In this document: positions 33,686 through 46,557 of the stretch, in pieces
Layout of the letters: every line of letters begins with the position of its first letter
Position numbering within the stretch: position 1 is the first letter of the stretch
Assembly: GCA_002493865.1 (NCBI GenBank)
Contig: DLAC01000010.1
Coordinates: forward strand, 31,017 to 95,016
From: Bacillales bacterium UBA7057
GTDB taxonomy: Bacteria > Bacillota_I > Bacilli_A > RF39 > UBA660
Direction of reading: 5' to 3'
DNA length: 64,000 bases
Position numbers and translations under genes: made by a program
The notes under the pieces: model-generated
Told to the model about the DNA's origin: nothing
Databases searched by the model: none
What the model saw: only the letters and a program-made list of their open reading frames with translations

Positions 33686-34969
33686 ATGGATCAGAAGTTA
33701 TTAGACATAGAAGGGCTAGTATCTGGTAGTTCTAGTATTAATCAAGAATCATCAAATTTAACTGAAGTTTGTGCTTCTTTGTATTCACTTGTTACAAGTT
33801 TAAGAGAAAATGAAGATTTTAAAACGATGATTGCCAGTTCTGAGTACTTTGGTTCTATTGATATATTGAATCAACAAGTTCCAAGATATGCAGAGGCATT
33901 ATTAGAATTTTCAAAGTTTTTATCGAATTATGTATTAGAAAATTATTCAGATACAGATGCAGAAATGAAAGCAAAAGTCGAAGCAAATTTAGCAGAAGCA
34001 ATTGCGAAACTTGGAGAAACTGAGGAGACTGTTGGAACCGGCGTAGACTATAGCAAAATTTCTACTACCGCAGCAGGAGCCTTATCCGGAGACTTTATTG
34101 ATAGCTCAAAAATTCAAAAGTCAACGTTTGAGGATGGAGAGTTAGAATTTATTACTCGTCCAGATGGAAGTGTTCAGATTGTTAAGAATGGGTCAGTGTT
34201 AGGATACACGACACAAGATGGAATTGGAAATGCACAGACAACGACGAGTGCAACGACAGGTAAAGAAACAGAAGAATTGCATACTTCTATATCGTCAGGG
34301 GAAATTGCTGGTACTGTTGCATCTATGGCAACAGTAGGTACAGGAGCTGTAGCAGGTAGTACTACTACTGGTGATGCTACTGCTTCTGCTGATATGATTG
34401 CCTCTGCGGATGCTACCATTCCTACAGATACTACCGCGATAGATCCAGGATTCAGTGGTACTACTGCTATGACTGCTCAAAATCCTACTCCCGGTACAAG
34501 GCTAATGGATGTACCAGACGTAAACAGTGAGTTTAAAGCATATATGGATTATAGAACTATTACTTCCAAAGATTCTAAACAATATGCAATGCAACATAGT
34601 GAAAATTGTTTTACAGATGAGTCTGGATTCCGAAAGATTCGTGATGAGAATGGTGAGGAATATTATATGGGTGCCTTGGGTAGTTATTATACCGAAGGTG
34701 AAGTTGGAAAAAAGTATCAAATTACACTTGATACTGGTGAAACATTTAAGTTTGTTGCTGGAGATCAAAAAGCAGATATTCATACCAATTCTACCAATCA
34801 ATATCGTGATACGGGAACAACAACCAATGTGGTTGAGTTTATTGTAGATGATAATCAAATCCCGTCAGATTGTAAAAGGGCTGGTAGTATGAGTGGAGCC
34901 TATGGTGGGCAATTTGGAGGAAACGTTGTTAAAATTGAAATGCTAGACGATGGAAAACCTATTATGTAG
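33686..34969 (+). CDS. T7SS polymorphic effector paralog 1: LXG-like N-terminal module plus unknown C-terminal domain
   Basis: N-terminal ~190 aa are shared with 35446.. and 37040.. (SSSINQESSNLTEVC...NEDFKTMIASS.YFGSID...VPRY.EALL.FS.FLSNYVLENYSDTD.EMKAKVEANL; DYSKIST.AAGALSG.F.DSSKI.KSTFE.GELEFITRPDGSVQIV). A Thr/Ala-rich linker follows, then a unique ~170-aa C-terminal domain (YMDYRTITSKD...). Confidence 0.6.
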   Translation: MDQKLLDIEGLVSGSSSINQESSNLTEVCASLYSLVTSLRENEDFKTMIASSEYFGSIDILNQQVPRYAEALLEFSKFLSNYVLENYSDTDAEMKAKVEANLAEAIAKLGETEETVGTGVDYSKISTTAAGALSGDFIDSSKIQKSTFEDGELEFITRPDGSVQIVKNGSVLGYTTQDGIGNAQTTTSATTGKETEELHTSISSGEIAGTVASMATVGTGAVAGSTTTGDATASADMIASADATIPTDTTAIDPGFSGTTAMTAQNPTPGTRLMDVPDVNSEFKAYMDYRTITSKDSKQYAMQHSENCFTDESGFRKIRDENGEEYYMGALGSYYTEGEVGKKYQITLDTGETFKFVAGDQKADIHTNSTNQYRDTGTTTNVVEFIVDDNQIPSDCKRAGSMSGAYGGQFGGNVVKIEMLDDGKPIM

Positions 34970-35025
34970 GAACTTTCTATATATATATTATTTTTAGATT
35001 ATAAAGGATAAGGAGCGTGAACGAT

Positions 35026-35337
35026 ATGCCAAATGGTTCAAATGATTTTAGTTTAAATTATGAAAATATTAGTGAAGTAATTACTCAAGTTACTCAAGGA
35101 AAGGACAAAATTGCTGAGATTGTAGATAAGCTTAGTGGGATTGTTGCTAATTTGGAAACTGCATGGGAAGGTACTGATGAGGCCTCATATGTAGAGAAAA
35201 TAAATAGCTATAAACCTCATATTTTAAAATTGCAAAAAGCCTATGAAGATGCAGCGATTGCACTACAGAATATGAGCAATCAATATCAAGAAAAGCAGGC
35301 GGAAAATACATTAAAGGTTCAGAGTGAGTTGTATTAA
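35026..35337 (+). CDS. WXG100-family small helical protein
   Basis: ~104 aa with a central W-x-G (ETAWEGTDEASY). ATG 35026 is preferred (RBS AAGGAG 10 nt upstream). Confidence 0.55.
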   Translation: MPNGSNDFSLNYENISEVITQVTQGKDKIAEIVDKLSGIVANLETAWEGTDEASYVEKINSYKPHILKLQKAYEDAAIALQNMSNQYQEKQAENTLKVQSELY

Positions 35338-35445
35338 GACGAATCTGTACTAAAATTTAGTTGATTGTTGCTTTACAGTCGACTTTTTCGTTTTATAAGA
35401 ATTATGTTATTTTGACAGATAAAAGTCATATTAGGAGGTTACGAA

Positions 35446-36696
35446 ATGAATGAAAAAAAGTTAAGTATAGAAGAACTTGTATCTAGTAGTTCTAGTATTA
35501 ATCAAGAATCATCCAATTTAACAGAGGTTTGTTCTTCTTTGTATTCACTTGCTATGAGTCTAAGAGAAAATGAAGATTTTAAAACGATGATTGCAAGTTC
35601 TCAATATTTTGGTTCGATTGATAGTCTCAATCGGGAAGTTCCAAGATATTCGGAAGCATTATTGCAGTTTTCAAGATTTTTATCTAATTATGTATTAGAA
35701 AATTATTCAGATACAGATGAAGAAATGAAAGCAAAGGTCGAGGCCAATTTAGAAGAAGCTATTTCTAAACTAGGAGAATATGGAATCGACTACAGTAAAA
35801 TTTCTACTTCTGCTGCCGGTGCTTTATCAGGAAACTTTGTTGATAGTTCAAAAATTCGAAAGTCAACGTTTGAAGAGGGAGAACTGGAATTTATTACTCG
35901 CCCAGATGGAAGTGTTCAGATTGTTAAGGATGGAACTGTGTTAGGATATACGACACAAGATGGAATCGGGAATGCACAATCAACGATGGGTGCAAATACA
36001 GCTACAGGAACAGAAGAAGTACATACATCTATGTCAAAGGAAGAAATCGCAGGTACTGCTATGGCAGCAGCTACAAGTGCAGGAATTGCAGCTAGTGGTA
36101 CTACTTCAGTAGGTGAAACAACAGTTACAGAAGAAGTTCCTGAAACATCAGCTCCAACTTTATCTACAGGTCAAGTTCCTTCTGGCCTTTCTTCTGGATA
36201 TTTTGGAGAGGTTCATACAAAAGGTCAAGCGAGTGCTAATATTAAAGAATCTTCTGGAAATATAACAACAGGGAATCAATCCTATACAATCGTTCCAGAC
36301 AGTGAATATACAAAGGCACCAGGTACAATTTCAGAAAGTGATTATCATTTATTAATTGCACAAGTTGCTGGAGAAGCTGGAGCTTCGGTAGAACCTAAAA
36401 ATTATAAAGATGATATGTTAGGAGTAACAACGACTGTATTAAATCGTCTTGAAACAGAAGGAAAATATGGAGATTCTGTAAGAGAAGTTCTTGAAGGTGG
36501 ATATTTCCCATTTGGAGAAACGTATAGGGCATATGAGCCGGGAGGTAAATACTATAATACTGACTGGGGACAAGATAAATTAAGACAAGCAACGGAGGTT
36601 GTTAATGATGCCTTAGGTGGGGCAAGAAATCTAGAAAGTAATGTATATTATTATTCTGGAAACGGTGAGTATAATAGATTCTCAGATGTATTATAA
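35446..36696 (+). CDS. T7SS polymorphic effector paralog 2: LXG-like N-terminal module plus SleB-like cell-wall hydrolase domain
   Basis: Shared N-terminal module. C-terminus LLIAQVAGEAGASVEP...GVTTTVLNRLETEGKYGDSVREVLEGGYFPF matches the Hydrolase_2/SleB cell-wall hydrolase fold (AxAxGE...VxNR...FP). Confidence 0.65.
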   Translation: MNEKKLSIEELVSSSSSINQESSNLTEVCSSLYSLAMSLRENEDFKTMIASSQYFGSIDSLNREVPRYSEALLQFSRFLSNYVLENYSDTDEEMKAKVEANLEEAISKLGEYGIDYSKISTSAAGALSGNFVDSSKIRKSTFEEGELEFITRPDGSVQIVKDGTVLGYTTQDGIGNAQSTMGANTATGTEEVHTSMSKEEIAGTAMAAATSAGIAASGTTSVGETTVTEEVPETSAPTLSTGQVPSGLSSGYFGEVHTKGQASANIKESSGNITTGNQSYTIVPDSEYTKAPGTISESDYHLLIAQVAGEAGASVEPKNYKDDMLGVTTTVLNRLETEGKYGDSVREVLEGGYFPFGETYRAYEPGGKYYNTDWGQDKLRQATEVVNDALGGARNLESNVYYYSGNGEYNRFSDVL

Positions 36697-36719
36697 AATG
36701 AAAATAGGAGTGTAGAATA

Positions 36720-45783: not shown

Positions 45784-45849
45784 TAAAAAATCTTGTTTTT
45801 AGTATCAATTTGTAAATTCATGGTTAGATAAAATTTTATAGGATAAAAA

Positions 45850-45876
45850 AAAGACATTTCTTTCATGTCTTTTTTC
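45850..45876. terminator. bidirectional rho-independent terminator
   Basis: AAAGACAT-ttctttc-ATGTCTTT flanked by an A-run and a T-run, between convergent genes. Confidence 0.65.
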
Positions 45877-45883
45877 TTTGGCA

Positions 45884-46237
45884 TTAAGCACCAAGATTTC
45901 CAGAATTTTGTAAATCTGATAGGCTTGATTCCATCTGACTTTGTAATTGTTTTGCATCTGTATCTGCTTGTTGATAACTTTGTGCTACATATTGGTCTAA
46001 GAAATCAGCAAATTTTCTGATTGCTTCAATAAATTTTGGAAAGTTTGCTGCTGCTTGATCGATTTTTTCGAAGAAAGCTAGGGAAGCAGCAACTGTTCTA
46101 AATTCTTCATTTGCACAAAGAGATTCAATTCTTTGTTTTGATTTTTGTAAATCAGTTTCCATTTGAGTTGCATATTGTCTTAATAGTTGGGCATTGGATT
46201 GTGCCTCTGATATTGAATATTTTAATCCGTTTTGCAT
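45884..46237 (-). CDS. stand-alone LXG-like N-terminal module (117 aa), higher-GC
   Basis: SLCANEEFRTVAASLAFFEKIDQAAANFPKFIEAIRKFADFLDQYVAQSYQQADTDAKQLQSQ is homologous to the effector N-terminal module. A/Q-rich codon usage with visibly higher GC than flanking DNA. Confidence 0.55.
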   Translation of the reverse strand: MQNGLKYSISEAQSNAQLLRQYATQMETDLQKSKQRIESLCANEEFRTVAASLAFFEKIDQAAANFPKFIEAIRKFADFLDQYVAQSYQQADTDAKQLQSQMESSLSDLQNSGNLGA

Positions 46238-46251
46238 CTTTATTCTCCTTT

Positions 46252-46557
46252 CTAATTTGTACTTAAGTCCTGTTCAGCTCTAGCGCGACGTTCCTGCTCT
46301 CTTTCATCCATTAAATTTGCAGTTTGATCTAATGTATCTGCAATTACACCAAGTGTAGCAGATAATTTTTTAATTTCAGGAACATAAGCGTTAATTGCAT
46401 CAACATAAGCGTTTGCATCCGTACCTTGCCATGCACTTTGTACTGAATTTCCAATGTTTTGTACATTGGTTGCTCCCTGATTAATATTTGTAGCGTCTAC
46501 ATTGCGTACATCACTTGCTACTTGACGTACAGCACTACTACTAAATGAATAATCCAT
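46252..46557 (-). CDS. WXG100-like protein
   Basis: 101 aa with W-x-G at SAWQGTDANAY. The MDYSF start resembles 36720..37025. Higher-GC, co-oriented with 45884..46237. Confidence 0.55.
   Translation of the reverse strand: MDYSFSSSAVRQVASDVRNVDATNINQGATNVQNIGNSVQSAWQGTDANAYVDAINAYVPEIKKLSATLGVIADTLDQTANLMDEREQERRARAEQDLSTN

Follow-up and report, generated by a model that had tools for sequence, protein, structure and literature searches.

The 64,000-nucleotide (nt) window analyzed here, positions 31,017 to 95,016 of contig DLAC01000010.1 of Bacillales bacterium UBA7057, holds at 33686-46557 a cluster linked to a type VII secretion system (T7SS), in which three consecutive effector genes, designated E1, E2 and E3, begin with a common N-terminal module, end in unrelated C-termini, and each have a small WXG100 partner gene next to them. 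We regard it as fairly probable that their products are muralytic effectors which the T7SS exports with the help of a partner and which diversify through the exchange of cassettes, their most likely targets being neighboring bacteria. The original prediction for this stretch had described a T7SS-linked polymorphic effector cluster of the LXG type; the first part of this description holds, whereas the LXG label has to be given up, as the N-terminal part of the module groups with the WXG100 proteins.

A two-unit module shared by the effectors

E1 (33686-34969, plus strand; 427 amino acids [aa]), E2 (35446-36696, plus; 416 aa) and E3 (37040-38377, plus; 445 aa) share a module of about 184 residues, which is 84% identical between E1 and E2 and 42% identical between E1 and E3; past residue ~260 no relationship is left among the three (13-26% identity in blocks of 30 columns), as predicted. 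At the DNA level, a stretch of 748 nt that begins 93 nt 5' of the ATG is 81% identical between E1 and E2, which are therefore the result of a true duplication rather than of chance resemblance. In E1, the module is formed by a hairpin (residues 1-110; 33686-34015) and by a second domain, hereafter domain b (residues 118-184; 34037-34237), and is followed by a linker rich in Ser, Thr, Ala and Gly (34238-34489) and by the cargo (34490-34966).

As a single sequence the module has no match in Pfam, NCBIfam, the PDB or a word-indexed database of 5.8 billion proteins, and back-translated pattern scans of genomes and metagenomes returned one locus each. When 1.84 billion representative proteins were searched exhaustively with a profile, 152 matches at E<=1e-3 were found, and the module is therefore a genuine family. 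The matches are of three classes (26 cover the whole module, 58 only positions 1 to ~115 and 63 only positions ~105 to 183), from which it follows that the module consists of two units; the 58 hairpin-only matches are mostly free-standing proteins of 95-113 aa. In an AlphaFold2 model built from a 19-sequence alignment (predicted local distance difference test score [pLDDT], 74), helices at residues 8-41 and 48-110 flank a turn at 42-47, and a disordered hinge (108-118) leads to a small α/β domain at ~118-184; a model from five sequences (pLDDT 52) was too poor and was not used. The earlier description of the module as helical thus fits the hairpin of residues 1-110 and not the modeled α/β domain behind it.

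The three copies of the module that had been recognized are confirmed in E1-E3, and the hairpin occurs in two further genes, S4 and S5, bringing the number of hairpin copies in the window to five. S4 (45367-45783, plus) is a hairpin whose cargo has been deleted; its start was placed at the ATG at 45367, as in its orthologue, the listing of open reading frames (ORFs) beginning at a TTG at 45337. S5 (45884-46237, minus) is a stand-alone hairpin of 117 aa with a homologue, P0020, and is kept in L015-17 (here and below, P numbers denote proteins and L numbers other contigs).

The hairpin groups with WXG100 proteins

The best Foldseek matches of the hairpin model are EsxA, EsxB and PE25 (probability 0.9-1.0, target TM-score 0.70-0.83), and alignment of the family with bona fide WXG100 proteins by hhalign gave a probability of 98.7% (E=1.5e-16, 96 columns). 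When 19 family modules were scanned against Pfam at E<=1, six matched PF06013 (WXG100; best E=7.4e-10), three DUF5344, the Lap3 family, and one T7SS_signal; the 25 families matched most often did not include LXG. Of 26 free-standing profile matches of about 100 aa that were tested, 23 are Pfam WXG100 proteins and three weakly touch LXG (PF04740). A profile search of the PDB with the module gave weak matches (E ~1e-3), the non-spurious ones being HP0062, GBS1074, SAG1039, EsxA, EsxB and one LXG chain (8gmh_B, E=8.6e-4). The search against PF04740 that had been proposed along with the LXG label returned no match for E1, E2 or E3 at E<=0.1 (Pfam threshold 26.5 bits). None of the five hairpins has an L-x-G at the turn, which reads E-N-E-D-F-K-T, and none has a W-x-[GS] within its first 130 residues; distant family members, for example P0098 and P0037, keep a W at the turn position. 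Judged by profiles and by the structural model, residues 1-110 are best classified as a WXG100-superfamily hairpin that lacks the W-x-G, and not as an LXG domain.

A predicted export signal divided between adjacent genes

All five hairpins carry a Y-x-x-x-D after helix 2, within residues 87-96 (Y87SDTD in E1 and E2, Y89RETD in E3, YQKTD in S4 and Y88QQAD in S5), Y87 and D91 being invariant. The complementary motif is found in small neighboring genes. WXGa (35017-35337, plus; 106 aa), between E1 and E2, has W50EG and scores 37.2 bits against Pfam WXG100 (threshold 27.3), with a weak secondary match to DUF5344 (E=0.01); WXGb (36720-37025, plus; 101 aa), 14 nt 5' of E3, has W45KG and a sub-threshold score of 18.9 bits, and the proteins at the orthologous position in relatives carry a precomputed Pfam WXG100 annotation; WXGc (46252-46557, minus; 101 aa), 14 nt 5' of S5, has W43QG and scores 39.5 bits, above threshold. 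In all three the W-x-G lies at residues 43-50 and a Y-x-x-x-[DE] is absent, the complement of the hairpins. Two W-x-G genes had been predicted between the effectors; these are WXGa and WXGb, and the cluster as a whole has not two but seven small W-x-[GS] genes.

In all contexts seen, the module gene has a W-x-G gene as its immediate neighbor: three times in the window, twice in L001, and in L002, L012, L013/14, L015 and L018. Orthologues of WXGa come after the E1 or E2 allele in L001 and L013, and the WXGb-E3 pair is kept in L001 and L012. The W-x-G and Y-x-x-x-D/E motifs have been described as spatially adjacent halves of a bipartite T7SS signal that makes export partner-dependent, and small helical partners as co-secretion factors (PMC10765036). 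We infer that each hairpin forms an EsxA/EsxB-like heterodimer with the adjacent W-x-G protein, the pairs suggested by position being WXGa with E1 or E2, WXGb with E3 and WXGc with S5. In L002, whose EssC is 51% identical, the motif assignment is reversed relative to the window: the effector hairpins keep W-x-G and are paired with small 'F-K-T'-type proteins.

Domain b, a candidate wall-targeting domain

Domain b is an α/β domain of 68 aa (residues ~118-184) with the consensus IDFSRIS.NA.DA.NGNFI.E..I.K.YW.D.G.L.Y..R.DG...I..DG..MG[FY]T[DT]..G. It has no match in Pfam, in the PDB by sequence profile or in PHROGs, and no fold match in the PDB, in a search that was dominated by the hairpin. It is present in about 90 representative clusters, always together with wall hydrolases or T7SS domains. 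Among 57 proteins that have domain b only, the catalytic families detected are exclusively wall hydrolases (Hydrolase_2 in five, GH25 in two, NlpC/P60 in two and C39-like in two), and the other theme consists of T7SS targeting domains only (WXG100, WXG100_2, T7SS_signal and EspA/EspE). Often the domain occurs in tandem, or stands right at the N-terminal end of large proteins that have no signal peptide. The tandem repetition and the exclusive association with wall hydrolases suggest a wall-binding role, and domain b most likely binds or targets the cell wall; it may instead have a secretion-linked role. A wall-binding domain had been named as a finding that would speak against a T7SS targeting module; domain b may well be one, but as an addition to a genuine T7SS-type hairpin that precedes it, and not as a substitute.

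Some very large proteins (P0048, P0058, P0064 and P0072; L009 2638-6954; 587-1435 aa) open with a single or double domain b at residue ~10. Neither a signal peptide nor a WXG-like domain is present in them and, where identified, their other domains are GH25, C39-like or NlpC/P60-like wall hydrolases.

The cargo domains

The cargo of E2 (~36253-36693) is a probable SleB-type (Hydrolase_2) cell-wall lytic domain. Tails of this type occur in several independent proteins, each scoring 23.4-23.9 bits against Hydrolase_2, below its threshold of 27; a profile made from five such tails matches the SleB catalytic domains 4f55_A (E=2e-5) and 4fet_B (E=8e-5) over 113 positions, including an invariant G-E motif. 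The cargos of other family members include an M15_4/VanY peptidase, a glucosaminidase and Hydrolase_2 domains.

The E1 cargo has no match in Pfam, the PDB (profile search), PHROGs or plasmids, and belongs to a family of 98 homologue clusters. All seven examples examined are stand-alone proteins with an N-terminal signal-peptide or membrane-anchor-like segment, from which we conclude that this domain probably works outside the cell; one member has an SH3_3 domain. Both contexts examined are phage- or mobile-element-like, and four unannotated gut phage records match.

In E3, which also has domain b, a low-complexity repeat tail begins at 37751. E3-type tails from different organisms (window 37600-38374; P0003, P0009) share the motifs 'GMG[ND]DPRY' / 'MQNDPRYQ' and 'QKNSS.L.QGF'. 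A C-terminal domain of about 70 aa, 'PFPEN..L.KPGF...YKELRYN..TGK.DV..KDG...SY.V.DL', ends the E3 orthologues of L001 (12004-13158) and L012 (489-1643) as well as P0008, P0010, P0012 and P0017; it has no match in Pfam or PHROGs and does not occur in the window E3.

The effectors have no signal peptide and, in a scan for transmembrane (TM) segments, none was found. As the cargos are predicted to be extracellular, a non-Sec route would be needed, which fits the T7SS linkage. The gaps around the effectors measure 14-108 nt and the neighboring ORFs are W-x-G genes; the original remark that no immunity genes follow the effectors is thus borne out. The identifiable cargos, as assigned from sequence, are peptidoglycan hydrolases that lack immunity partners, and the label 'toxin' is unproven.

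Exchange of cargo cassettes among close relatives

That the cluster diversified by duplication and C-terminal swapping in situ had been proposed, together with a comparison of strains as the way to verify it. In this comparison L013, from a near-identical strain, is 95.8% identical to the window over 30841-34489, has no match over 34490-34997 and is 95.2% identical from 34998 onwards. The boundary of the E1 cassette is thus at 34489/34490, and a cargo-coding segment of about 500 nt (508 nt) has been swapped, a SleB-type domain standing in its place in L013. Neither an immunity ORF nor any other ORF lies inside the exchanged segment, which is cargo only. The same holds at the protein level, E1 and P0001 being 93-100% identical in the module and 5-26% in the cargo, and P0002 is the converse, with the cargo of E1 on a more diverged module.

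A second comparison is given by L001, from a metagenome-assembled genome (MAG), in which the positional orthologue of the E1 module belongs to the single SleB-type effector; the full-length orthologue of E2 is found in L001. The regions present only in the window are the E1 cargo region (34317-35024) and the E3 tail (37751-38538), which is replaced in the orthologues of L001, L012 and L015. The window has one effector more than L001 (three versus two), and the number also differs in L015. S4 is 86-93% identical to residues 1-120 of P0016, a protein of 277 aa with Peptidase_M15_4 and VanY domains; its position in L015-17 is occupied by a full-length M15 effector, about 100 nt of the window (45706-45806) replacing about 460 nt of L015, and S4 is the remnant of an M15-peptidase effector. 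Taken together, these observations support diversification of the cluster in situ by duplication and C-terminal replacement.

The secretion locus, its flanks and its host

The predicted essC gene (38578-43194, plus) lies downstream of the effectors and codes for an FtsK/SpoIIIE-type T7SS ATPase of 1538 aa, with 1038.5 bits against TIGR03928 (T7_EssCb_Firm; cutoff 778.4), a Pfam FtsK_SpoIIIE match, an N-terminal FHA domain (28.7 bits) and a pair of TM segments (residues 270-319). All contigs of sufficient length contain EssC, and its linkage to an effector and a partner reappears in independent contigs whose EssC identity goes down to 51%. The gene that follows (43175-43450, plus; 91 aa) had been called yukD-like: its position, that of EsaB/YukD (TsxB), is conserved after essC in L001, L002 and L015-17, and no sequence method verifies its identity, there being no Pfam, NCBIfam or PDB match even with a three-sequence profile. 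The predicted esxA-like gene (43459-43755, plus; 98 aa) has W42TG and keeps its position in relatives; its matches to the WXG100/ESAT-6 families (NF035934, TIGR03930 and PF06013) are sub-threshold only.

EssB, EsaA and EssA are required by known T7SSb systems. Matches to EssB/YukC, EsaA/YueB and EssA/YueC were found neither among the cluster proteins tested nor among ten further large or membrane ORFs of the window, nor in the syntenic contigs, and the machinery as seen is therefore incomplete or unusual. Accessory components of T7SSc-j (kinase, PPM phosphatase, TsxJ, TsxV, TsxI and others) are likewise absent from the window and the syntenic contigs. Either the three proteins are encoded elsewhere in the genome, or the system is a pared-down variant. 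Their absence from the whole window is a more notable departure from the canonical T7SSb than the gene order, to which attention had been drawn.

Downstream of the EsxA-like gene, p168 (43758-44264, plus; 168 aa) has no family match and has orthologues at the same position in L001, L002 and L015-17; in L002, DUF4176 genes (2926-3401) lie between the EsxA-like gene and the p168 homologue. Three small helical genes follow on the plus strand, at 44261-44566 (W45VG), 44573-44896 (W47YS) and 44910-45365 (W40KG, with a long coiled-coil tail), with weak WXG100 matches (E=1.3e-5 to 1.1e-3) and the same order in L001, L002 and L015-17. The genes from E1 through S4 are co-directional, and S5 and WXGc form a convergent minus-strand pair. 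A consensus scan for promoters and terminators (eight sites versus 5.0 expected) is barely above the expectation from shuffled sequence; a terminator-like hairpin between WXGa and E2 (35359-35384, plus) hints that E1-WXGa is a separate transcription unit, and a promoter-like site lies near WXGc (46637-46608, minus).

Directly 5' of the first effector lies p312 (32646-33584, plus; 312 aa), in which a Cys-rich motif (CDSC...CLCPFC) and, near the C-terminus, a single TM-like segment (residues 262-281) are recognized and which has no Pfam or NCBIfam match. It adjoins the first effector in the window, L001 and L013/L014, and may belong to the island as a secretion component without a recognized family. 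Directly 5' of p312, a block at 30125-32622 codes for a CDP-alcohol phosphatidyltransferase-like membrane protein (recognized by eye), a phosphatidylserine decarboxylase and a zinc-ribbon membrane protein; it is found in the window and L013 and not in the syntenic MAG locus L001. The island is flanked on both sides by housekeeping genes in the window, L001 and L015.

The window has a GC content of ~31%, and the reference genome closest to it is a MAG of uncultured Bacilli in a mouse gut catalogue. Genes of the M23 and M50 types and a sigma-factor gene are found at 49151-52184, and the syntenic L015 orthologues carry Pfam Peptidase_M23, Peptidase_M50 and sigma-70 domains; MreC, too, has Pfam support from syntenic orthologues. 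Recognized by eye were spore-coat genes, CotJA-like and CotJC-like (manganese catalase family), at 1137-2136, an MreD-like gene and a sortase-like gene (62181-62948). The CotJA/CotJC-like, M23/M50-type and sigma-factor genes point to a spore-former, and overall the gene content indicates that the host is a walled, spore-forming, low-GC firmicute. A wall-less (Mollicutes-like) producer was considered as a reason for the lack of immunity genes and was rejected in view of the MreC/MreD-like, CotJA/CotJC-like, M23/M50-type and sortase-like genes.

Two further features of the window lie outside the cluster. An 820-aa surface protein (6387-8849) has a signal peptide, a thioester domain (TED) and five SpaA-type prealbumin-fold repeats, and is covalent-adhesin-like. 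At 19428-25922 are two tandem paralogous pairs, each formed by a membrane-anchored protein of ~285 aa (19428-20276; 22603-23472) and a large protein (20373-22514; 24027-25922). Both large proteins end in 'NLPPYEVVNFWKRIA', and the first has siphovirus DUF859 and baseplate Gp10_C domains; they are phage tail-fiber-like, and their setting is chromosomal, without further phage genes close by.

Discussion

In the model that we favor, E1, E2 and E3 would be substrates of the adjacent EssC, and S4 the remnant of a fourth. Each effector would begin with a WXG100-superfamily hairpin that has lost the W-x-G turn but retained, where helix 2 ends, the Y-x-x-x-D export motif, and would pair with the next-door small protein, which has the W-x-G and no Y-x-x-x-D. 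The resulting EsxA/EsxB-like four-helix bundle would present a composite W-x-G plus Y-x-x-x-D surface for recognition by EssC. Behind the hairpin, domain b would bind or target the cell wall, and a flexible Ser/Thr-rich linker would lead to an exchangeable cargo whose site of action is extracellular. In E2 this would be a SleB-type lytic enzyme, in the intact allele of S4 an M15 peptidase, in E1 an uncharacterized, phage-associated extracellular domain and in E3 the repeat tail. Cargos would be replaced by recombination at the linker/cargo junction, and the enzymes would attack the walls of neighboring Gram-positive bacteria in a bacteriolysin-like manner, the choice between own and foreign wall being the least certain step. 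Antagonism is preferred over self-remodeling because the polymorphism is of the conflict type.

Several findings weigh against this model. E1, E2 and E3 themselves have no direct Pfam WXG100 match, so that homology is seen at the profile level only. The E1 cargo is without known activity, the repeat-rich E3 tail (GMG[ND]DPRY; QKNSS.LDQGF) contains no recognizable enzyme, and the Hydrolase_2 match of the E2 cargo (E=9.4e-5, 23.4 bits) is below threshold. Domain b is absent from 2.9 million viral contigs. The EssB, EsaA and EssA proteins are missing from the loci searched, and no ORF for a cognate immunity gene is found in the gaps around the effectors, which is atypical for antibacterial polymorphic toxins. 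Finally, secretion, dimerization and lytic activity are predicted from sequence and models.

By the same export route, the enzymes could instead be directed at the producer's own wall, as housekeeping or autolytic hydrolases that open the peptidoglycan for the apparatus or its substrates in an EssH-like manner, or that serve in cell separation, spore cortex remodeling or germination. An immunity gene is lacking even at the swapped cargo, the E2 cargo resembles the spore cortex-lytic SleB, and the host has sporulation-type genes (CotJA/CotJC-like by eye; M23, M50 and sigma-70 on the L015 orthologues), all of which speaks for such enzymes. Moreover, the Staphylococcus aureus T7SSb needs the wall hydrolase EssH (PMC13059805), and the passage of proteins across the thick Gram-positive wall has been described as a question not yet settled (PMC13492133). 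Housekeeping hydrolases, however, are normally conserved, whereas here unrelated cargos occupy one site in near-identical strains, the effector copy number varies between two and three, one effector is a deletion remnant, one has no enzyme and one cargo comes from a phage-associated pool. This pattern of polymorphism is typical of conflict systems, and EssH is itself Sec-dependent and not polymorphic; we therefore hold a role at the producer's own wall to be rather unlikely.

The two other explanations concern the route of export and the class of effector. If the proteins were not T7SS substrates, being cytoplasmic, released by lysis or exported in another way, their proximity to essC would be incidental; secretion is deduced from sequence, the window shows none of the core membrane partners of EssC, and some domain-b-only proteins have neither hairpin nor signal peptide and no T7SS genes in their (short) contexts. 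This is improbable in view of the recurrence of the effector-partner-EssC linkage in independent contigs, of a hairpin that keeps the T7SS export motif beside a partner that keeps the W-x-G, and of extracellular-enzyme cargos that have no signal peptide. Least probable of all, and by our estimate very much so, is that these are LXG polymorphic toxins of a T7SSb, with Lap-type partners and overlooked immunity proteins. The architecture would suit them: the helical targeting domain is N-terminal, the C-terminus varies and small helical genes lie alongside; they would also account for the LXG chain among the weak PDB matches and for the three related small proteins that touch PF04740. The effectors fail to match PF04740 and LXG is not among the families commonly matched by their relatives; there is no L-x-G at the turn; the helical part measures ~110 aa and not ~200 aa; a single bona fide WXG100 partner stands where a DUF3130/DUF3958 or DUF5344/DUF5082 pair would be expected; and, with the short gaps and the swap of cargo only, no ORF is free for immunity.

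If the proteins are indeed partner-dependent muralytic effectors of the T7SS, it is possible, and we put it forward tentatively, that they form an undescribed class of T7SS substrates in gut spore-forming Bacilli, characterized by a half-signal hairpin, a W-x-G-only partner, a new wall-targeting domain of ~68 aa, bare cassettes and a pared-down EssC system without EssB, EsaA and EssA that would be a subtype beyond b-j; such substrates may get proteins through the wall. Most of the T7SSb effectors known so far are LXG toxins, which act on intracellular or membrane targets and come with immunity proteins of their own. Hydrolases with their own T7SS address would offer a tractable system in which to ask whether the T7SS exports wall-degrading enzymes for antagonism or for its own passage, and the locus, which cleanly assigns W-x-G to one gene and Y-x-x-x-D to its neighbor, provides a natural test of the composite-signal model. 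Domain b, which has no family entry, is a candidate new wall-binding or secretion-linked module, and the apparent lack of EssB, EsaA and EssA suggests that the T7SS diversity of uncultured gut Bacilli exceeds subtypes a-j.

Comparison with known systems

The closest likeness is to WXG100 heterodimers of the EsxA/EsxB type and to WXG100-led effectors (PF06013), with which the hairpins share the fold, homology at the profile level, a Y-x-x-x-D after helix 2, and an adjacent W-x-G partner and FtsK/SpoIIIE ATPase. Unlike EsxA and EsxB, of ~100 aa, the hairpin here lacks the W-x-G and is fused to a domain of ~68 aa, a linker and an enzyme, in proteins of 416-445 aa, and the two motifs are strictly divided between effector and partner.

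The CHAP-domain wall hydrolase EssH carries a Sec signal peptide, is a conserved and not a polymorphic protein, and is not known to contain a WXG-type domain, whereas here the hydrolases themselves carry the predicted T7SS address. The likeness lies in a peptidoglycan hydrolase encoded at the T7SS locus, in the case of EssH that of the S. aureus T7SSb (PMC13059805).

LXG toxins with Lap partners, such as TelA-D of Streptococcus intermedius, EsaD of S. aureus and YxiD of Bacillus subtilis, resemble the effectors in their helical N-terminal targeting domain, co-encoded small partners and recombining C-termini (PMC10765036). They differ in that the effectors described here have no PF04740 match, no L-x-G and no immunity gene, and have one WXG100 partner in place of two or three Lap/Esx proteins (DUF3130 plus DUF3958 or DUF5344 plus DUF5082). 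The predicted cargos are peptidoglycan hydrolases or extracellular domains, in contrast to the nucleases, NADases, lipid II phosphatase and membrane-depolarizing toxins of the LXG proteins.

With T7SS subtypes b-j (Garrett, Higginson & Palmer 2024, PMC11217815) the locus has in common a putative TsxA/TsxB/TsxC-like trio (an EsxA-like protein, a small protein after essC, and an EssC with FHA) and small WXG100-related genes beside candidate substrates; its own conserved extras are p168, the three W-x-G-like genes and possibly p312. Lastly, the E2-type cargo aligns with the catalytic domain of the SleB/CwlJ spore cortex-lytic enzymes (PF07486; 4f55, 4fet), from which E2 differs in having neither an N-terminal PG_binding_1 domain nor a signal peptide and in being joined to a T7SS hairpin.

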